A DNA stretch of 12,141 nt from contig DQVL01000033.1 of assembly GCA_015661745.1 (NCBI GenBank), positions 1 to 12,141 on the forward strand, given 5' to 3'. The stretch's first letter is position 1. Every line of letters starts with the position of its first letter. Shown here in pieces: positions 519-11,181 of this stretch. This DNA comes from Thermoprotei archaeon (GTDB lineage: Archaea > Thermoproteota > Nitrososphaeria > Geothermarchaeales > JDFR-13). The notes under the pieces are model-generated. The model made no database searches, had not been told where the DNA came from, and was given only the letters and a program-made list of their open reading frames with translations. Position numbers and translations under genes: made by a program.

Positions 519-570
519 GTGTAATATGCATTGCATCGAACAGTTATAATCTCCACTTTAAATATATTAT

Positions 571-1587
571 ATGGTGGATTCCGTGGCACCCCAGTGCTAC
601 ATTGAAGAGATAGATATACAGGAATTTAGGGGGATAAGGGGGCTCAAGAATCCTATAAAACTATCAAAGTATAATATCATAATAGGTAGGAATAATGTAG
701 GAAAGACGGCGCTTCTTGAGGCGCTATATCTACTCCCATCACCATATGATTCCATAAGAGGACAGCCCTTAATTGGAAGACATAGAATGCCATTAGTTAT
801 AAATCTCCATGGAGGAGACTGGACATCTTTAATATATGGTTATAGTGGCTACGCAAAGTTAAGCTATAAACTATCAACCAATGTAACACTTGAGTTTAAT
901 CTATCATATAAACCTGAGTATTTAAGGGTGGATGGTGAAGAGGCTGGAATAGATCTCTATATAGACTCTATATCTAAGTGCTTTAATATTAAAGAGGAGG
1001 ATGTTAGCCGCTTAACATTCTTAATTCCTAATGATACCCTATTCATTAAAGACCTACATGGAAGGCTACTAGAGGTATGGGATGCCATAGTTAAGGAGGG
1101 GTTGCATAGGGAGATTGTAAGTAGGTTGGTGAACCCTGTAGTTTATGATAAGTTTACGGAGATACTTATTGAGAGAAATCAACTTAAGTTACGTAATGAG
1201 GTTGGGGGTGATATTGGGCCATTGTATATCACGTTAACCGATTTAGGTGATGGTGTTGAGAAGGTCACCACTGTAGGGCTAGCATTAGAATACTTCAAAC
1301 CTAGAGTCGTTTTATGGGATGACCTCGAGGTCGCTATGCATCCAGGTTTAGTAAGGTCCATACTTAGATGGCTAACTTCGAGGGATTGGCAGGTGGTCAT
1401 ATCTACTCATAGTATAGACGTCCTCAATATATTTACTGATCTGGGTTTGAAGGATGGGAAGATAATATTGTTAAGGAAGACATCCGATGACTTCATAGAG
1501 GTATCCAGCTACACCCCAATGGAGATGGGGGATATCATAGAGAAGGGGATAGATATCAGGAAGATCATAGATATCTTGGAGCTATGA
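571..1587 (+). CDS. ABC/SMC-like P-loop ATPase (AAA_21/AAA_15-type, OLD/AbiLi/AriA-like ATPase domain only)
   Basis: N-terminal IEEIDIQEFRGI strand. Walker A GRNNVGKT (residues 39-46). Signature-like LTDLGDGVEKV. Walker B VVLWDDLE. H-loop VISTHS. No transmembrane or nuclease domain is evident. GTG at 583 is an alternative leaderless start, because TTTAAATA at 556-563 is very close to ATG 571. Confidence 0.8.
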   Translation: MVDSVAPQCYIEEIDIQEFRGIRGLKNPIKLSKYNIIIGRNNVGKTALLEALYLLPSPYDSIRGQPLIGRHRMPLVINLHGGDWTSLIYGYSGYAKLSYKLSTNVTLEFNLSYKPEYLRVDGEEAGIDLYIDSISKCFNIKEEDVSRLTFLIPNDTLFIKDLHGRLLEVWDAIVKEGLHREIVSRLVNPVVYDKFTEILIERNQLKLRNEVGGDIGPLYITLTDLGDGVEKVTTVGLALEYFKPRVVLWDDLEVAMHPGLVRSILRWLTSRDWQVVISTHSIDVLNIFTDLGLKDGKIILLRKTSDDFIEVSSYTPMEMGDIIEKGIDIRKIIDILEL

Positions 1588-1610
1588 AACTATATGAAGA
1601 GTGAGGCTAC

Positions 1611-2204
1611 ATGAAATTCTATGAAGGTGAAGTGGTAAGCACTGATGGCATAGTATTCCTTACCGGTGATGGTGGCCGTGAGAAGAGAGTGATTGAGGCA
1701 CTAGCTGAAAAGTATAACCATAAGAAGACGATTTTTAGACCAACATTCATTCCTCATAGAACGGGCCTCACCGGTGTGGTGGAGCAATTGGCAACCCTAA
1801 CTAATTTAAAAATTAGCGTTAAGTCTTATCTAATAGTAATTGATAAGGAGCATGTAAATAATTTTAGCCAGGTTGAGAGGAAGTTAGGTACCTATGGATT
1901 CGAGATACTTGAAAAAAAATTAGAAGAGGGGGCATGGATAGTAAAGTGTAGGAAGGGTGTTAAGGAGATAATGTTGTATTTGGCTGTGATGGGGGAGGAA
2001 AAGTGTATAGAAGAGAATTTAGCTAAGCTAATTAGGCTAAGGTTCGGTGAAGAAGTTGGACCGACAAAGAGAGAGTTAGATAAATGGCTGAAAAGTAGGG
2101 GGATGAATGAAAGAAGTATTATAGAGGGTGCAGGTGAGGATGTATTGAGAAAATCACTACCAAACCTTGTCACACTATTAGAAGAGATTAATATAACTCT
2201 TTAA
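1611..2204 (+). CDS. Uncharacterised 197-aa partner of the ATPase (possibly a degenerate TOPRIM/RloB/DUF4276-like protein)
   Basis: Same strand as the ATPase, 23-nt spacer, GTGAGG Shine-Dalgarno-like motif at 1601-1606. The motifs IVFLTGDGGRE and YLIVIDKEH sit where a TOPRIM Glu and DxD would lie, but the canonical Glu is absent. I recognise no family with confidence. Confidence 0.6.
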   Translation: MKFYEGEVVSTDGIVFLTGDGGREKRVIEALAEKYNHKKTIFRPTFIPHRTGLTGVVEQLATLTNLKISVKSYLIVIDKEHVNNFSQVERKLGTYGFEILEKKLEEGAWIVKCRKGVKEIMLYLAVMGEEKCIEENLAKLIRLRFGEEVGPTKRELDKWLKSRGMNERSIIEGAGEDVLRKSLPNLVTLLEEINITL

Positions 2205-2407: not shown

Positions 2408-2833
2408 CTAATCCAGATTGTACTGAGTTGATGGGGATAAGAATCTATCTTCATCAATGGATTTTAGGAGTAGCTTCTCCAGTAGTAGGGGTATCCTCTC
2501 TAGAATGACTCTACCCTCACTCAAAACCTTCTCTATATACCATGGGGGTGCATAGTTAAGTATCCTAGTATCTACTTTGTATCCTAGTTTATCCGTTAGA
2601 GCCTCATCCAGATCAAATTTATAGTCTAGTGGGTCGATCCCACCCCTTATATAGACCGCCACATCAATATCTCTAAATGGGTACTCCCTAAGGAATGACC
2701 CATATATAACAGCCAATAAAATCTCGTTACGCCTAGATAGTTCCACCCCCAACCTATTTATAACAATATCCTTCTCATCCCAAGAGAGCTGGTAGAATCT
2801 AAACCGCTCCCTAATCTCAATCTCCAGAGGCAT
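2408..2833 (-). CDS. mntA: Minimal nucleotidyltransferase (MNT) antitoxin of a HEPN-MNT pair
   Basis: NTase motif YGSFLREYPFRDIDVAVY (GS...DxD). The ORF-track start at 2851 is TTG. ATG 2833 is preceded by GAGGAGG and is the more likely start. Confidence 0.8.
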   Translation of the reverse strand: MPLEIEIRERFRFYQLSWDEKDIVINRLGVELSRRNEILLAVIYGSFLREYPFRDIDVAVYIRGGIDPLDYKFDLDEALTDKLGYKVDTRILNYAPPWYIEKVLSEGRVILERIPLLLEKLLLKSIDEDRFLSPSTQYNLD

Positions 2834-3239
2834 ATCTCTCAACCTCCTCAATAAATTTCTTGACAGCTTCTAACCCATTCCCCCTAGCTTCATCATAGAT
2901 TCTAGTGTCATCGACCACCCAATATCTATGTATTATAAGGTTTCTTAGGCGGGCTAGACGCATCATATTTTGACCTATCTCCCGTGATATAACACCCTTC
3001 TCCACCAACCTTCTAAATACCTCTATATAACCATCAAAATGTCTTTCACCTAGCTCCCTAAGTATATGTAGCCCTAATGATGTTGAAGCCTCAACCACCT
3101 CGATAATAGCGAGTCTAAGAGTGTATATATTTCTGATATCACTCAGGAAACTATTCAGATCCATCTCTACAATACCACCAGCTATATCTAATGAATACTC
3201 TATATCTCTTAATAGCTTCTTTAAAAGCTCTCTATCCAT
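2817..3239 (-). CDS. hepT: HEPN (DUF86) toxin
   Basis: Rx4-6H motif in LARLRNLIIHRYWVVD near the C-terminus. 140 aa. Overlaps the downstream MNT gene by 17 nt (35 nt if the TTG start is used). Confidence 0.8.
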   Translation of the reverse strand: MDRELLKKLLRDIEYSLDIAGGIVEMDLNSFLSDIRNIYTLRLAIIEVVEASTSLGLHILRELGERHFDGYIEVFRRLVEKGVISREIGQNMMRLARLRNLIIHRYWVVDDTRIYDEARGNGLEAVKKFIEEVERYASGD

Positions 3240-3423: not shown

Positions 3424-3759
3424 TTAGAGAATGGTTAACTTAACATCCTCTATAACCGTTTTGATATATTTGAAGTGCTTATCCATCGTTATTATTTCAT
3501 ATCCATTATTATATCCTATAGCCATGATAATAAGGTCTACGGAAGGGAGGGGATTCCCCTTCTTCCTTAATTCTATCTGCCATCTAATAGCTGTATCATA
3601 ATCTTCTTTCGTAGGATATAAAATTTCACTGGCAGCCGTGAGTGCAGGGGGATATTCAATGACTGTATATATCGTTATATAGCCAGGTATTTTCTCAACC
3701 TTTTCTTTAGATATAAGCTTTATTACTGCGCTTGTGTCGTAGAGTCTAGGCGATTCCAC
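3424..3759 (-). CDS. vapC: PIN-domain toxin VapC
   Basis: Acidic residues in PIN spacing: LYDTS (D8), VIEYP, SVDLII, ITMDKHF. GTG start at 3759. Overlaps the upstream antitoxin by 37 nt. Confidence 0.75.
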   Translation of the reverse strand: MESPRLYDTSAVIKLISKEKVEKIPGYITIYTVIEYPPALTAASEILYPTKEDYDTAIRWQIELRKKGNPLPSVDLIIMAIGYNNGYEIITMDKHFKYIKTVIEDVKLTIL

Positions 3760-4013
3760 TCCCTCATCAACACCTCCCTATACAACCTTACCTCATCATT
3801 ATAGTCTAATGGCTTTAGATCCTCCATCTTAACTCCCTTCTCAACAAGCCTATTCAATAATGATTCGGAGGATTCAACCCTCTCCATCTCCTCCAGACGT
3901 TTCAGATGCTGGATAATACTCTCTCTAATGACCTGGCTCCAGTTAACATCCTTATACCGCCTCATAGCCTCCAGAATCTTTTTCGGGAGTCTCACCGTGA
4001 AATTGGCACTCAT
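3723..4013 (-). CDS. vapB: VapB-type antitoxin (RHH-like N-terminus)
   Basis: Starts MSANFTVRLPKKILEAMRRYKDVNWSQVIRE. Paralogous to the 4807-5037 product. The ORF-track start at 4058 lies inside the promoter palindrome, so ATG 4013 is preferred. Confidence 0.7.
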   Translation of the reverse strand: MSANFTVRLPKKILEAMRRYKDVNWSQVIRESIIQHLKRLEEMERVESSESLLNRLVEKGVKMEDLKPLDYNDEVRLYREVLMREWNRLDSTTQAQ

Positions 4014-4024
4014 CACATCCCCAT

Positions 4025-4078
4025 TATATTGTATGTATGTGCATGTATATATATACATATATATCCATACAATATAAA
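4025..4078 (-). promoter_or_regulatory. vapBC-1 promoter with nested palindromic operator
   Basis: An 11-bp perfect inverted repeat, TATATTGTATG (4025-4035) and CATACAATATA (4066-4076), is concentric with a perfect 16-bp palindrome ATGTATATATATACAT (4043-4058). On the minus strand TTTATATTGTAT (4067-4078) is a TATA-like box about 54 nt upstream of the ATG. Confidence 0.55.
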
Positions 4079-4163
4079 GCTATGTAACCAACTCCATGAG
4101 ACAGCGTAATTTAAAGTCCATATAAAATGAAGGATATAAAATGGGCTTAACCTAAATAGAATT

Positions 4164-4409
4164 TTATCTCCTTGTTGTCTGCAAACCCTCTTCCGAATGA
4201 ATAGAAAAGAGGCGATGGTTTTAAATATTCCTGTAAACATCGGATTTTCTGGGATTTTCCCATTGAGAATAGAGGCTTGAGTAGCCCATGCCTTATCGAG
4301 ATGTATGGGATGGGGGAGCTGTGAAACCCCGGAACTTCCAGATGGAGTATTGGTGAGAAGCCAGGATGGAACGGGAGAAACCACATCCATCAAGATGGGA
4401 CAGTTCACG
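4164..4409 (+). repeat. Copy C (full length) of the repeat family: internal promoter plus omega-RNA-like scaffold, no ORF
   Basis: Collinear with 10170-10425 over its whole length with small indels. The overlapping minus-strand ORFs change frame between copies, so it is non-coding. The left boundary is uncertain by about 10 nt. Confidence 0.75.
4220..4227 (+). promoter_or_regulatory. TATA box inside repeat copy C
   Basis: GCGATGGTTTTAAATATTCC resembles the resident IS left-end promoter ATCGATAAGTTTAAATATATCC. The predicted TSS is near 4250, about 160 nt upstream of the element's 3' end. Confidence 0.5.
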
Positions 4410-4424
4410 TTTGACATTTAGGTG

Positions 4425-4820
4425 TTATGGATGGACTTTAATACCAAGTTTTGTTGCTACTTTAGCCTGCTCATCATCCAGTGTTAGGAGTGTTCCACCC
4501 ATACTACGTGCCAATACAATATATAGTGAGTCATACACAGTTAACCTATTCTCTAAAGCGATCTTTAAAGCATCATCTATATACTCTATCTCGGGATATA
4601 AAGTTATGTTCCTACCTATCATAGATTTTAATATATTATATGCTTTTAACGCGTCATCAAAGCTTATATATTCTCTATAATATGCCTTCCATATAGCGTT
4701 AGAGACCTCCTTAAGAAGATGATCTATAGATACAGCCCTCACAAGATACTCTGCAATATCTCTCCATCCATCTTCACGGAGTATGAATGCTGTGAGAGCT
4801 GATGCATCAACTACTATCAC
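4425..4820 (-). CDS. vapC: PIN-domain toxin VapC
   Basis: Starts (GTG)IVVDASALTAFIL. Later acidic residues in LLKEVSN, VYDSLY and LTLDDEQ. GGAGG lies 5 nt upstream of the GTG. Overlaps vapB by 14 nt. Confidence 0.85.
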   Translation of the reverse strand: MIVVDASALTAFILREDGWRDIAEYLVRAVSIDHLLKEVSNAIWKAYYREYISFDDALKAYNILKSMIGRNITLYPEIEYIDDALKIALENRLTVYDSLYIVLARSMGGTLLTLDDEQAKVATKLGIKVHP

Positions 4821-5037
4821 GATCCTCCCTCACAGATGATGCGGAGAAACCTTTGGGTACCCTCCATCCGGCGTTGGAGAGGATCTCCATTACAGTTTTA
4901 AAGTTTTCTTCAGCCTCTAGCTCCCTAACCTTCTCTTCAACAAACCTTCTAAGTTCTTCACTCCAATTAATCCTATCCCTATACTTATCCATCAACTCCT
5001 TAATCTCCCTCCTAACCTTAAAACTGACAACACTCAT
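4807..5037 (-). CDS. vapB: VapB-type antitoxin
   Basis: Starts MSVVSFKVRREIKELMDKYRDRINWSEELRRF, paralogous to the 3723-4013 product. AGGGGT precedes ATG 5037. An upstream in-frame ATG at 5058 is possible. Confidence 0.7.
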   Translation of the reverse strand: MSVVSFKVRREIKELMDKYRDRINWSEELRRFVEEKVRELEAEENFKTVMEILSNAGWRVPKGFSASSVREDRDSS

Positions 5038-5191
5038 TAGACCCCTAAATAATACCATATAAACTACTAATTAATAATACCAGTAAGTATACAATATAAA
5101 ACCCCCCAGAAAATTCTTACAAAAGTCGCTAAGAAAGCTTATGAATTTATTCATGAGATGGATTAGGGGAGGTGGGTGGGTTATCGATAAG

Positions 5192-5223: not shown

Positions 5224-5616
5224 ATGAATAACTATCAACATTCAAGGAATAAGGTGTATCTAATCCAGTATCATTTAGTCTGGTGTCCTAAGAGGAGAAA
5301 GCCTGTCTTAGTTGGGAAAATTAGGGAGAGATTGGAACAAATAATATATGAAGTTGCAGAGGAACTGGGAATTAAAGTCTTAAAACTTGCTATAAATCCA
5401 GACCATCTCCACTTATTCGTTTCAGCCTATCCAACAATTTCTGTCCACAAGATTGTGAAGAGAATTAAAGGTAGAAGCTCTCGCATTTTAAGGCAAGAAT
5501 TTCCAGAACTGCTTAAGCTTCCATCGCTATGGACTCATTCATACTTCGTTGCAACAATTGGAAGCGTTTCAAAGGAGATAATCGAAACATATATTGAGGC
5601 TCAGAAGGGGAGATAA
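5224..5616 (+). CDS. tnpA: IS200/IS605 Y1 (HUH) transposase TnpA
   Basis: HLVWCPKRRKPVL, HUH motif in NPDHLHLFV, catalytic Tyr region LWTHSYFVATIG. 130 aa. Confidence 0.9.
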   Translation: MNNYQHSRNKVYLIQYHLVWCPKRRKPVLVGKIRERLEQIIYEVAEELGIKVLKLAINPDHLHLFVSAYPTISVHKIVKRIKGRSSRILRQEFPELLKLPSLWTHSYFVATIGSVSKEIIETYIEAQKGR

Positions 5617-6725
5617 TGTTAGTTAGAAAGGTTATTAAGGCTAAGATATTGGATGAAACAAATAAAAGAAAGCTTGAAGTGTTGGAGAGAGAATACAATA
5701 ACTTCCAGAAAGCCTTGAAAGGAGAAGATGTTAAGCTTTATTCAGCGACAAAACAGCAAGCTGAGAGATTATTAATGAAAATTAAGAAGCAAAACGGTGG
5801 AAAACTTAGACGAAAAGAGTATCCATTAATTCTGAGGAACGATGTTTATAGAGTGTGGGATGTCAAAGTAACTGACAACAAGCTAACGAAATACTGGATT
5901 AAGATTCCTATTTATGGAATTAGAGGCGGTGTGAATCTACCAATTAGACCTCATTGTGAATTAGACATGAGCTGGAGATTTAAAGAGGCTAAAGTTATCA
6001 GAAAGAAAAATGGCTGGTTTGTGCACATAACGGTGGAGAAGGAAGTAGAAATTAAGAGAGAATACGACAACATTCTTGCTATTGATTTAGGAATAAAATG
6101 GATTGCCACAGTCGTTTCAACAGCTGATAATAGACCAAAATTCTATGGAAAAGAGCTAAGAAGAGTTAGGGGACATTATTTCTATCTTAGAAGAAAGCTC
6201 GGGAAACTAAAGAAGTTTAAAGCTATAAAGAAGATTGGAAACAAAGAAAGGAGAGTGGTTAATGACCTTCTACACAAGATTTCAAGAGAGATTGTTAACA
6301 GAGCCAAGAAGGAGAATGCTATGATAGTATTGGGTGATTTAAAAGGAATAAGAAATCAAGACAAGGGAAGGAGGTTTAACAGAAAGTTAAACTCATTTCC
6401 ATACTATCGATTATCTAAATTTATAGAATACAAAGCAGTTTGGGAGGGAATAGCAGTAATAAAAATCAATGAAGCTAACACATCGAAGCTATGCTCCCGT
6501 TGTGATTCTCAAGGTTTGAGGCACAACGGGAGATTTGTATGTCCAAAATGCGGAGTAGAGTTTAACGCAGATTATAACGGAGCTTTAAATATTTTGAAAC
6601 GAGCCCTTGGGTATATCTCAAGGGCAGGGGCTGGTTTGACACAGCCCATAACTCGGGAGGATGAGTGGAAGCCACGACAAACCGAGAATCTCCCGGCTTT
6701 AGCCGTGGAGAGTGTCAACTATTAA
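5616..6725 (+). CDS. tnpB: TnpB (IS605 OrfB) RNA-guided RuvC-like nuclease
   Basis: RuvC triad candidates in ILAIDLGIK, IEYKAVWEGI and FNADYNGALNI. Zinc finger CSRCDS...CPKCG. TAATG one-nt overlap with the tnpA stop. 369 aa, with an apparently intact catalytic set. Confidence 0.9.
   Translation: MLVRKVIKAKILDETNKRKLEVLEREYNNFQKALKGEDVKLYSATKQQAERLLMKIKKQNGGKLRRKEYPLILRNDVYRVWDVKVTDNKLTKYWIKIPIYGIRGGVNLPIRPHCELDMSWRFKEAKVIRKKNGWFVHITVEKEVEIKREYDNILAIDLGIKWIATVVSTADNRPKFYGKELRRVRGHYFYLRRKLGKLKKFKAIKKIGNKERRVVNDLLHKISREIVNRAKKENAMIVLGDLKGIRNQDKGRRFNRKLNSFPYYRLSKFIEYKAVWEGIAVIKINEANTSKLCSRCDSQGLRHNGRFVCPKCGVEFNADYNGALNILKRALGYISRAGAGLTQPITREDEWKPRQTENLPALAVESVNY
6604..6719 (+). ncRNA. Predicted 3' part of the TnpB omega-RNA (reRNA) scaffold
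   Basis: Hairpin CCCTTG (6604-6609) with CAAGGG (6619-6624). Hairpin GTGG-AAG-CCAC (6665-6675). Right-end hairpin at 6689-6711. Closing helix GTT(T)GACAC (6634-6642) with GTGTCAAC (6712-6719). The true 5' end is unknown and probably lies further upstream. Confidence 0.5.
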
Positions 6726-9350: not shown

Positions 9351-10167
9351 GGTTAGGAAGATAGTTACCCATGGTGGGAATGCCCACCTAGATGATCTAT
9401 TGGGCTCCGCCCTCCTAGCATTTAAATATAATGTACCTATAGAGAGGGTATCCTCTGTAGATTCTTTTGAGGCTGAGACTATATATCTTGATATTGGAGG
9501 TCGTTATCAACCACCATATTTCTTGGATCATCATCAATCGATTGATATCCCATGTAGTCTCGTACTAGTTATTAGGCATCACTTTCCAGAGCTAGTTAAA
9601 TATGATATTCCAGATATTAGATATATTGATGTAAGGGATAGATATGGTATGATTAAATATATTAATTGTCTCCTCCCAAGTGAAATACTGTTTTTTGAGA
9701 GGATGTTTACTAGGTGGTTTGCATCGATAACATATATCTCTCCAGAGGATGATGAATATAGTATACTTGTATGGCTGGGAAAGAAGTTCTACAACTATAT
9801 CAGGAGTAGGAGTGAAGAGATTAAGAGGATTGATGATGTTCTATCGAAGGCAGATCGATATATCTATAACGATGTAAATATACTACTCCTCGACGAGGAT
9901 CTTCCACCCCATGAAGTAGCTCTTAGGATGAGGGATATCCATGTAGTTATACAGCCTAGTTCTAGAAATAGGGATCACTATAATATTATAAAGTTGGCTC
10001 CACACCAGGATTACATAAGTTTAGATGATGTTGCTGAATACCTTATGGAGAGGGGTAAACTAGTCTTCTACCATGCAAATAAATTTATGTTAGTATCTGA
10101 AGACCTTGAATCGGCTCTTGAGGCTATAAAGAAAATTAAATATGTAAATATATCCAGGGATAAATGA
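9334..10167 (+). CDS. MYG1/UPF0160-family metal-dependent hydrolase
   Basis: VTHGGNAHLDDLLGSALL and DIGGRYQPPYFLDHHQS match the MYG1 signature (THxGxFHxDE ... DxGGxYD...FDHHQ). Overlaps the upstream gene by 17 nt. Confidence 0.65.
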   Translation: MEDIFRVRKIVTHGGNAHLDDLLGSALLAFKYNVPIERVSSVDSFEAETIYLDIGGRYQPPYFLDHHQSIDIPCSLVLVIRHHFPELVKYDIPDIRYIDVRDRYGMIKYINCLLPSEILFFERMFTRWFASITYISPEDDEYSILVWLGKKFYNYIRSRSEEIKRIDDVLSKADRYIYNDVNILLLDEDLPPHEVALRMRDIHVVIQPSSRNRDHYNIIKLAPHQDYISLDDVAEYLMERGKLVFYHANKFMLVSEDLESALEAIKKIKYVNISRDK

Positions 10168-10169
10168 GG

Positions 10170-10425
10170 TTATCTCCTTGTTGCTCGCAAGACCCATTCC
10201 GAAAGGGAGGGGATAAGTAAGGGGAGCGATAGTTTTAAATATTCCTAAGAACCTAAAAATTTTCTGGGATGTTCCCATTAAGAATATGATCTGAATAGCC
10301 CATGCCTTAACGAGAGGCGTGGGAGGGAGGAGTTGTGAACCCCCCAAAACCCCCAGATGAAGTATTGGCGGGGAGCCAACATGGAATGGGAGAAGCCCCA
10401 TCCATCAATACGGGGGTAGTTTACA
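10170..10425 (+). repeat. Copy D (full length) of the repeat family
   Basis: Collinear with 4164-4409. It fills the whole gap between the MYG1-like stop codon (10165-10167) and the sirtuin GTG start (10426). Confidence 0.75.
10234..10241 (+). promoter_or_regulatory. TATA box inside repeat copy D, oriented toward the sirtuin gene
   Basis: AGCGATAGTTTTAAATATTCC is conserved with copy C. The predicted TSS is near 10264. Confidence 0.5.
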
Positions 10426-11181
10426 GTGTCTAATATAGATAATGAGCTTATTGTTAAGGCAGCTGAATACATATATAGAGCTAAGAACCTCATCGTCTTT
10501 ACAGGTGCTGGGATGAGTGCAGACTCTGGGATACCAACTTTTAGGGGGGAGGATGGGCTATGGAATAGATATAGGCCTGAGGATCTAGCGACTTTAGATG
10601 CATTCCTTAGTGATCCTGTGAAGGTTTGGAGATGGTATCTATGGAGGATATCGAGGCTTAAATCGGTTAAGCCTCATAAGGGATATAATGTATTGAGTAG
10701 ATGGTATCGAATTGGTATCCTTAAATATGTTATTACCCAGAATGTAGATGGACTCTTTATCGAATCCGGTATCGATAAAGTTATAGAGTTACATGGAAAT
10801 ATATTGAGGGCTAGATGTACATCATGTAGATATAGCTCTCCAATAGATAAATTGGATAGGTCTTCACTACCTATTATATGTCCTAGATGCTATGGACTTA
10901 TGAGACCAGATGTTGTATGGTTTGGTGAACCCCTCAACCCATCTATACTTGATAAGGCTTATCAATTGGCTAGGGAGTCGGATGTGATGCTCGTCATAGG
11001 TACTAGTGGGGTGGTATATCCAGCAGCTTATATACCATATATAGCTAAGGAGTCTGGCTCTAAAGTTATAGAGATTAATGTTGAGGAGTCTATGATTACA
11101 GAGATATCAGATATCTTTATAGGTCTTAGAGCTGCTGAGGCATTGACCTATATAGATAAATATTTAAGTAGGTATAGATAA
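10426..11181 (+). CDS. cobB: NAD-dependent protein deacylase (Sir2/CobB sirtuin)
   Basis: GAGMSADSGIPTFRG, QNVDGL, LHG, and zinc ribbon CTSC...CPRC. GTG start. Confidence 0.9.
   Translation: MSNIDNELIVKAAEYIYRAKNLIVFTGAGMSADSGIPTFRGEDGLWNRYRPEDLATLDAFLSDPVKVWRWYLWRISRLKSVKPHKGYNVLSRWYRIGILKYVITQNVDGLFIESGIDKVIELHGNILRARCTSCRYSSPIDKLDRSSLPIICPRCYGLMRPDVVWFGEPLNPSILDKAYQLARESDVMLVIGTSGVVYPAAYIPYIAKESGSKVIEINVEESMITEISDIFIGLRAAEALTYIDKYLSRYR

Follow-up and report, generated by a model that had tools for sequence, protein, structure and literature searches.

The window analysed here is the entire 12.1-kb contig of a metagenome-assembled genome (MAG) labelled 'Thermoprotei archaeon'. It carries, near its left end, a self-contained and probably co-transcribed two-gene module made up of a 338-aa ATP-binding cassette (ABC)-type ATPase and a 197-aa partner protein. 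Sequence profiles place this pair as a deep, mainly archaeal branch of the 'ATPase + DUF3226' architecture in which the first acidic motif is altered, and analogy with better-known relatives makes an antiviral or abortive-infection module its most likely, and a plausible, role. We estimate at roughly 0.6 the probability that the pair is a split OLD-type system, in which the ABC ATPase would be the sensor or regulator controlling a small two-metal TOPRIM-like nuclease that is activated by infection and cleaves nucleic acid. The features of the module are as follows, with the two genes taken from the list of open reading frames (ORFs), the promoter read from the sequence and the ATPase motifs read from the ATPase translation.

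544-570, plus strand: putative archaeal promoter with A/T-rich TATA-like boxes (TTATAA at 544-549, TTTAAATA at 557-564)
571-1587, plus strand: ABC-type (AAA_15/AAA_21) ATPase, 338 aa, no fused effector domain
685-708, plus strand: Walker A of the ATPase, G39-RNNVGK-T46
1243-1266, plus strand: signature-like motif of the ATPase, L225-GDGVEKV-232
1312-1329, plus strand: Walker B of the ATPase, L248-WDDLE-253
1402-1413, plus strand: H-loop of the ATPase, S278-THS-281
1588-1610, plus strand: intergenic spacer of 23 nt, between the ATPase TGA (1585-1587) and the partner ATG (1611-1613)
1611-2204, plus strand: partner ORF, 197 aa, predicted TOPRIM-like protein, divergent and DUF3226-related, with a helical domain at the C-terminus
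1665-1682, plus strand: G19-[D/N]20-G21-x-x-[E/D]24 of the partner, part of a conserved constellation that also includes G52 and G128
1842-1853, plus strand: D78-x-E80-H81 of the partner, same constellation
2010-2015, plus strand: E134-E135 of the partner, same constellation
2067-2069, plus strand: K153 of the partner, same constellation

The lengths of the two ORFs, the 23-nt gap and the Shine-Dalgarno-like GTGAGG had been given by a first-pass annotation of this DNA, and the ORF list and the sequence agree with it in every case; the GTGAGG lies at 1601-1606, 4 nt ahead of the partner ATG. The partner protein is deposited as EYH44_01150. The TATA-like boxes lie directly 5' of the ATPase ATG, and this position is compatible with a leaderless or near-leaderless transcript of the first gene. 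One genome per GTDB species was scanned with the ATPase alignment, which yielded 80 loci, and all six-frame ORFs of these loci were then searched with hidden Markov models (HMMs). The proposal that the two genes form an operon held up in this survey: in about 25 of the 28 loci that have a close ATPase homologue and downstream DNA, a member of the partner family follows immediately on the same strand. The reciprocal look-up, made with three partner proteins, reached 5 contigs, and in all 5 the ATPase gene is the direct upstream neighbour; the juxtaposition is not due to chance. The ATPase and the partner are separate genes in all related loci examined. Of 16 intact pairs, 7 have a 4-nt overlap of the genes in place of a gap, which is consistent with co-translation. 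In addition, the pairwise identities of ATPase and partner correlate across the 16 intact pairs (r = 0.62, Mantel 0/5000), with the partner evolving faster (mean identity 26% vs 39% for the ATPase).

All four ATPase motifs listed in the first-pass annotation are present in the translation, and they are invariant or at least 90% conserved in the family. In an alignment of 31 members, G39, N41, N42, G44 and K45, G226 and G228, L248, W249, D250, D251 and E253, and T279 and S281 are invariant, while H280 is conserved in at least 90%. The protein matches AAA_21 (4.5e-15) and AAA_15 (1.4e-11) in Pfam. Its top PADLOC match is AbiLi (PDLC02336, 3.9e-22, 77.3 bits, split in two stretches), and it also matches PDC-M38A (PDLC04608, 1.6e-19, 68.8 bits, and three further PDC-M38A models, again in two stretches), the AriA model PDLC02980 (4.2e-17 over residues 35-285), Old (6e-15) and HEC-01A (1e-10), with further PADLOC matches to PtuA, NsnB, HEC-02A and GajA. 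The nearest solved relatives of the family profile are PtuA, the retron Eco8 OLD nuclease and GajA. Matches to RecF, Rad50 and SMC_N are weak, confined to the P-loop region (about 45 N-terminal residues) and far below the family cut-offs. More than 160 homologues of about 320-360 aa were found, mostly in archaeal MAGs. Judged by these matches, the ATPase falls in the defence-type AAA_15/AAA_21 ABC group, as had been claimed, and together with the conserved pairing they support the comparison made earlier with AbiL, PARIS and OLD systems, in which a stand-alone ATPase works with a small effector.

A direct family assignment of the partner failed, since nothing scored above threshold in Pfam, NCBIfam or PADLOC. 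The window partner had no PADLOC match at E ≤ 1 (AbiLii, AriB and PDC-M38B included) and no RloB or DUF4435 match in Pfam at E ≤ 1, and the PDB sequences, searched with the single partner sequence and with the family profile, returned no meaningful match and no TOPRIM. A macrodomain (Nsp3 Mac1, family profile E ~0.025) was considered and dropped; the match is not significant and covers one beta-alpha-beta unit, and no macrodomain was recovered by Foldseek. The idea that the partner is an ORFan was also rejected. A word-indexed search had returned two homologues, the partner itself and one 40%-identical relative, and this was a sensitivity artefact: an exhaustive HMMER search of 1.84 billion cluster representatives (clusters at 50% identity) recovered 270 partner-family proteins at E ≤ 1e-3 and 174 at E ≤ 1e-10, nearly all of about 200 aa.

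The alignment of 101 members of this family shows a sharply conserved set of residues. G128 is invariant, and G19, G21, G52 (95 of 101 members), D78 (100 of 101), E80 (E in 92%, D in 8%), E134 (98%), E135 (93%) and L140 are conserved in at least 90%; K153 is found in 89%, and position 24 is acidic in 99 of the 101. The window partner reads L17-TGDGGRE-24 and V76-IDKEH-81. Position 20 is D in 66 members, N in 32 and E in 3, so that the absence of the canonical TOPRIM Glu, pointed out in the first-pass annotation, is a property of nearly the whole family. On a UPGMA (unweighted pair group method with arithmetic mean) tree of the family the Asp/Asn state at this position switches about 24 times, and nearest neighbours share the state in 58 of 101 cases, no more than chance (52.8 +/- 5.5 in shuffles). 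Such free interchange suggests that position 20 does something that either side chain can do, such as metal ligation via O-delta-1 or hydrogen bonding, and the pattern would argue against acid/base chemistry there.

The link between the partner and TOPRIM proteins comes through the distant relatives of the ATPase. These relatives, as found in the species scan, are about 380 aa long and mostly bacterial, and nearly all of them are immediately followed by a gene of about 210 aa. Ten such downstream proteins were tested for DUF3226: seven are bona fide Pfam DUF3226 proteins (E 1e-36 to 6e-68), one matches below threshold and two have no match. In a set of 20 such downstream proteins every one matches PADLOC PDC-M38B, and AriB is matched by eight of them as well (3.5e-4 at best). 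The DUF3226 alignment contains an invariant E-G in LLVEGxDD, an invariant D-A-D, the motif G.W.MP...G.LE[D] and an invariant Lys in KA..h.WLA.Q. When the partner alignment was compared with it by hhalign, the two aligned end to end over 177 columns, with a probability of 81-89% and E of 1e-5 to 2e-6. The score was 41.1, against at most 16.4 (probability at most 0.6%) for controls consisting of the reversed DUF3226 alignment, 20 column-shuffled versions and an unrelated ATPase alignment. In the hhalign alignment, partner [D/N]20 pairs with the E of VEG, [E/D]24 with D, D78-x-E80 with D-A-D, E134 with the E of LED, and K153 with the invariant K of DUF3226. This pairing bears out the earlier reading that LTGDGG and VIDKEH sit where the Glu and DxD of a TOPRIM domain would be. 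When the partner family, DUF3226 and intermediates were merged into one profile, its top three matches in PDB were PH0156 (2P62, 7e-4), 1T6T (an Aquifex RNase M5-like TOPRIM, 8.5e-3) and AriB (8UX9, 0.03), whereas the DUF3226 profile alone matches the same TOPRIM entries more weakly (0.15-0.23); adding the partner family thus strengthened the TOPRIM matches rather than diluting them. The partner had been described as a 'divergent or new effector'. The first half of that description stands and the second does not, because the full-length hhalign match indicates homology to DUF3226/PDC-M38B: sequence profiles place the partner, as a divergent member, in a superfamily already known (DUF3226/PDC-M38B-like), and it is not a new kind of effector. 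A literature search found no paper on 'DUF3226' or 'PDC-M38'.

The conserved residues of the partner can be compared with those of characterized TOPRIM nucleases. The acidic set of AriB is E26, D30, D88, E90 and E122, and its E26A mutation abolishes defence (PMC11464382); the BpOLD set is E400, E404, D455, D457, E508 and K562 (PMC6755086). Partner positions 20, 24, 78, 80, 134 and 153 match these active-site residues in order and largely in spacing. The TOPRIM hallmarks, as defined by Aravind et al. (1998) and summarised in PMC6755086, are a Glu, a Gly after beta2 and a DxD, within a fold whose parallel beta-sheet of four strands lies between pairs of helices. The Gly is present in the partner as G52, which follows strand 40-43 and stands at the start of helix 52-65, and the DxD expected at the end of beta3 is present as DxE (cf. 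AriB D88-x-E90) at the end of strand 72-78. The single BpOLD mutant E400A is still active (PMC6755086), so that a protein lacking the Glu may well have kept its nuclease activity. An AlphaFold2 model of the partner built on the 101-sequence alignment has a predicted local distance difference test score (pLDDT) of 95.8 and a predicted template modelling score (pTM) of 0.91. In this model, strand 14-18 is followed by G[D/N]G, helix 22-34, strand 40-43, G52 opening helix 52-65, strand 72-78 ending in DxE, helix 85-94, a three-strand meander (98-127), helix 133-145 beginning with EE, and a four-helix domain carrying K153. The modelled order of secondary-structure elements is compatible with the TOPRIM description in PMC6755086. 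With an earlier model built from 2 sequences (pLDDT 72.5), Foldseek returned noise only, with BpOLD at rank 29. The assignment of a TOPRIM fold is thus put forward on sequence profiles and motif geometry and not on structural similarity.

By analogy with PARIS, we propose that the putative nuclease is activated upon infection. An oligomer of the ATPase would keep the partner inactive and act as an ATP-dependent sensor; an invader-derived cue would serve as the trigger and release or activate the partner. The two-metal site of the partner, presumably formed by [D/N]20, [E/D]24, D78, E80 and E134/E135 and assisted by K153, would then cleave nucleic acid (tRNA or DNA as substrate), which would stop the infected cell or the invader. 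A more far-reaching reading, which seems to us possible but doubtful, is that the partners form an unrecognised, mainly archaeal TOPRIM lineage in which Glu has been replaced by interchangeable Asp/Asn while the rest of the two-metal site was kept, and which together with the ATPase would make up a new defence system missed by the current finders. If it were true, the lineage would be expected to use modified catalytic chemistry or a modified substrate.

Among named systems, PDC-M38 is the closest to the pair. It shares the A-then-B gene order and the tight spacing; the ATPase matches PDC-M38A, and the partner family is homologous to DUF3226/PDC-M38B over its full length, with the Gly, DxD/E, E and Lys positions in common. 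However, the partner falls below all PDC-M38B models and below the Pfam DUF3226 threshold, its homology being detected by hhalign only. In addition, VEG and DAD of PDC-M38 are replaced by G[D/N]G and D[R/K]EH, respectively, the ATPase is about 40-50 aa shorter (338 vs about 380 aa), and the present branch is confined almost wholly to archaea, in contrast to the mostly bacterial DUF3226 pairs that were sampled. Because it failed the component B model test, the pair is a distant relative of PDC-M38 and not a member by current definitions. PARIS resembles it in being split into an ABC ATPase, matched here by the AriA model, and a TOPRIM effector, in the correspondence of AriB E26, D30, D88-x-E90 and E122 with partner positions 20, 24, 78-x-80 and 134 in order, and in the weak AriB matches of the DUF3226 relatives. 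The differences lie in the size of AriA (53-55 kDa, about 500 aa, with coiled-coil and helical-bundle insertions, against 338 aa here) and of AriB (35 kDa, DUF4435/TOPRIM, against a 197-aa partner with no AriB/DUF4435 match), and in the essential Glu of AriB, which is Asp or Asn in the partner family. PARIS itself works with a hexamer scaffold, an Ocr-type trigger and tRNA-Lys cleavage.

The comparison with AbiL is based on AbiLi as the best PADLOC match of the ATPase and on the same layout of an ATPase with a small TOPRIM-class partner; however, the AbiLi match is split in two stretches and the partner has no AbiLii/RloB match at E ≤ 1. The OLD family (P2 Old, BpOLD, GajA and the retron Eco8 effector) has the same class of ATPase and an OLD/RNase M5-type two-metal constellation with Glu and Lys in a helical domain, like that predicted here, but its ATPase and TOPRIM parts are fused and its Glu is invariant, whereas our pair consists of two distinct genes and has another residue in place of the Glu. 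HEC-01, an ABC ATPase plus TOPRIM protein embedded in Hma systems, is marginally similar overall, through the HEC-01A match of the ATPase and weak HEC-01B matches of a few partner relatives.

Carriers of the pair were found in Thermoproteota, Bathyarchaeia, Nitrososphaerota/Caldarchaeum, Asgard, Thermoplasmata, Archaeoglobi, Halobacteria and one Chloroflexi MAG, and the distribution is patchy. The cultured crenarchaeon Stetteria hydrogenophila (GCA_054657575.1, locus L085, 8001-9693) has an intact pair of 340 + 217 aa with a 16-nt gap, which offers a native host for experiments. The Chloroflexi bacterium MAG (L013, 6001-7598) has one intact pair of archaeal type, which suggests either inter-domain transfer or a binning error. 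Damaged copies are frequent. Five loci have a partner gene interrupted by a frameshift or a stop codon (L009, 4318-4904; L012, 7017-7651; L015, 1868-2544; L017, 985-1600; L029, 6025-7632), the ATPase is split in L029, L093 (855-1829) and L005 (6004-6971), and in L001 (283-1147) the ATPase is cut to its N-terminal 97 aa before an intact partner. The damage could be genuine, reflecting the decay of a module that is costly or toxic, or it could stem from errors in MAG assembly.

The surroundings of the pair in the window, with their toxin-antitoxin (TA) loci and genes derived from insertion sequences (IS), are as the first-pass annotation described them.

291-416: MazE-like fragment
2408-3239: MNT/HepT pair
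3424-4058 and 4425-5058: two pairs of a PIN gene and a ribbon-helix-helix (RHH) gene
5224-6725: IS200 TnpA and TnpB

A survey of 20 loci, covering three genes to either side of the pair and 102 genes in all, found no conserved neighbour or third gene. The most frequent neighbours are MNT (Polbeta/NTP_transf_2) and HEPN/HepT TA components, at about 5-6 of the 102 genes, and archaeal ATPase_2. PADLOC detected isolated Cas3, HEC-03B, HEC-01B, JetD-like and AriA/NsnB-like genes among the neighbours. The neighbourhoods vary, but MNT/HEPN and PIN TA pairs, IS200/605 elements, Cas3 and further pairs of an ATPase with a nuclease recur in them. In single loci, the pair lies near PIN, PaREP1, four HEPN-MNT pairs and PDDEXK_10 with an adjoining IS200/605 (L089), near a DUF87 ATPase, TnpB and an AAA_5 ATPase (L002), near Ku/LigD genes and TnpB (L091), or near PDDEXK_10, a transporter and the his operon (Stetteria). 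No conserved metabolic operon surrounds the pair in the loci examined. As for mobile carriers, tblastn of both proteins against 72,556 plasmids and of the partner against 50,697 phage records gave no match, and IMG/VR viral contigs gave two P-loop-only matches and nothing else; the partner sequences diverge too much to be scanned for by pattern. The picture is thus of an autonomous chromosomal module that is horizontally mobile and sits in variable regions, and its association with TA and defence genes is moderate, not overwhelming.

Several further observations were made around the pair. A gene for a PDDEXK_10 + DUF3782 protein stands beside the pair or a few genes from it in L084/L085 (7081-7863), L086 (4631-5281) and L089 (7664-8443), loci that are independent (Stetteria and two metagenomic contigs), and it is possibly an accessory or co-travelling nuclease gene. 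Locus L086 (5359-11230) has a tandem run of three AAA_15/AAA_21 ATPase genes with a small ORF behind each one (458+123, 356+199 and 387+81 aa), and so resembles a local array of ATPase-effector modules that differ in their partners. In the window, a 26-nt sequence, TCGCTAA[A/G]AAAGCTTATGAATTTATT, occurs at 487-512 and 5126-5151 (25/26 identical). The first copy lies 59 nt ahead of the ATPase start codon and the second upstream of the IS200 tnpA, and a weaker copy lies at 2268-2294, just downstream of the partner stop. With copies on both sides, the cassette is bracketed by sequence resembling the upstream end of the IS element; the sequence is either a promoter or regulatory motif common to the two or a remnant of mobilisation by the IS.

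A number of results weigh against a split OLD-type defence system. The first acidic position of a TOPRIM domain, by the alpha1/beta1 junction, is an invariant Glu, which is essential in AriB (E26A, PMC11464382), and the partner has D/N there. The pLDDT-95.8 model, searched with Foldseek, had no match at E < 1e-3 in either PDB or BFVD, and TOPRIM proteins are absent from its top 50 hits, so that the structure comparison did not confirm the TOPRIM fold. Across the 101 partner-family members there is no consistent Pfam or PADLOC match; 1 of the 101 matches a PDC-M38B model, at 2.8e-4, and the window partner by itself matches Pfam DUF3226 below threshold (E 5.5e-4, 20.2 bits vs a cut-off of 27). 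In L005, where the ATPase is frameshifted, L023 and L033, the partner is missing. The remaining neighbours of the pair are mixed and many are housekeeping genes; of the defence-island context proposed earlier, the recurrence of TA modules and some defence genes across homologous loci holds, and the many housekeeping neighbours speak against it. PDC-M38, the closest named relative, is listed in PADLOC as a phage defence candidate on the basis of guilt-by-embedding (Payne et al., bioRxiv 10.1101/2024.01.29.577857) and carries no experimental defence phenotype, and HEC-01, which is architecturally similar, gave no protection in published assays (bioRxiv 10.1101/2024.01.29.577857).

These points leave room for other explanations. 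The pair might be a TA-like addiction or stabilisation module of mobile DNA, in which the partner would be a nuclease toxin, the ATPase its ATP-dependent neutraliser, and the outcome post-segregational killing. Classical TA pairs and an adjoining IS200/605 surround it in the window and in L089, decayed copies are frequent and include the nuclease-only copy of L001 with its deleted ATPase, and the ATPase and the IS200 tnpA share the 26-nt motif upstream. We nevertheless regard this as improbable: the plasmids, phage records and IMG/VR viral contigs contained no match to the module, several copies lie in long chromosomal contigs beside housekeeping genes, and the relatives of known function (PARIS, OLD, Gabija and Septu) are antiviral, although addiction and antiviral roles are not mutually exclusive. 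A housekeeping role in DNA repair or recombination, with a RecF/Rad50-like ATPase and a nuclease partner, might be suggested by the RecF, SMC_N and Rad50 matches at the P-loop and by the Ku/LigD genes adjoining L091, but those matches are short and sub-threshold, and the pair is rare in archaea, with a patchy distribution over species, has variable neighbours and is often pseudogenised; this is very improbable.

The nature of the partner is the other point at issue. It could be derived from a TOPRIM protein and yet be no nuclease, acting as a non-catalytic adaptor or as a metal- or ligand-binding regulator, with the ATPase as the effector or as the recruiter of another factor. Loss of the canonical Glu, with Asn in a third of members, would fit this, as would the existence of non-catalytic TOPRIM folds such as CWB2 modules (PMC6755086) and the weak, non-significant match to the phosphate-loop region of a macrodomain. 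However, conservation reaches 89-100% at four further acidic positions and at the Lys and the Gly, in a family whose mean identity is about 26%, which is hard to explain without a metal site. Asn is itself able to ligate Mg2+. In addition, E400A is tolerated in BpOLD (PMC6755086), and Foldseek produced no macrodomain though PDB holds hundreds, so that a non-catalytic partner is in our judgement unlikely. Nor do we think it at all probable that the partner is unrelated to TOPRIM, that is, a new fold with convergent acidic motifs. The empty Foldseek result in spite of the high pLDDT, the partner-only profile without a TOPRIM match in PDB and the silence of Pfam and PADLOC are what such a fold would predict, but the full-length hhalign match to DUF3226 is far above the controls, the partner occupies the same genomic place as DUF3226, downstream of a homologous ATPase, its predicted secondary-structure order and motif placement fit TOPRIM (PMC6755086), and the merged profile strengthens the TOPRIM matches in PDB. 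A TOPRIM-like nuclease under the control of the ATPase thus continues to be the reading we prefer.

Immunity has been mapped far less well in archaea than in bacteria, and the partner family escapes the standard tools, Pfam and PADLOC. Its clusters at 50% identity number at least 270 and come from Thermoproteota, Bathyarchaeia, Asgard, Thermoplasmata and others. If the pair is a defence system, an ATPase + TOPRIM branch would be added to the archaeal repertoire. The ATPase + TOPRIM architecture is already well known, which caps the novelty; new here is a mainly archaeal, previously unmodelled branch of it with an altered first acidic motif. The analysis also ties DUF3226/PDC-M38B, itself a family lacking annotation, to the AriB/OLD-type TOPRIM nucleases, and Asp/Asn in place of the TOPRIM Glu provides a natural experiment on the role of this residue in OLD-type two-metal sites.

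Besides the genes described above, the window contains no Rfam family and no tRNA. It does contain three copies of a non-coding element of about 260 nt (1-105, about 4160-4424 and about 10166-10439; 67-93% identity), the first of which is cut by the contig start. This element, likewise lacking an Rfam or tRNA match, is overlapped solely by spurious-looking minus-strand ORFs, and it could be a miniature inverted-repeat transposable element (MITE) or an undescribed structured RNA, possibly related to IS200/605. The third copy is adjoined by a stand-alone SIR2-family gene (10426-11181, 1.1e-47), which probably encodes a CobB-type deacetylase; SIR2 domains occur in defence systems too.

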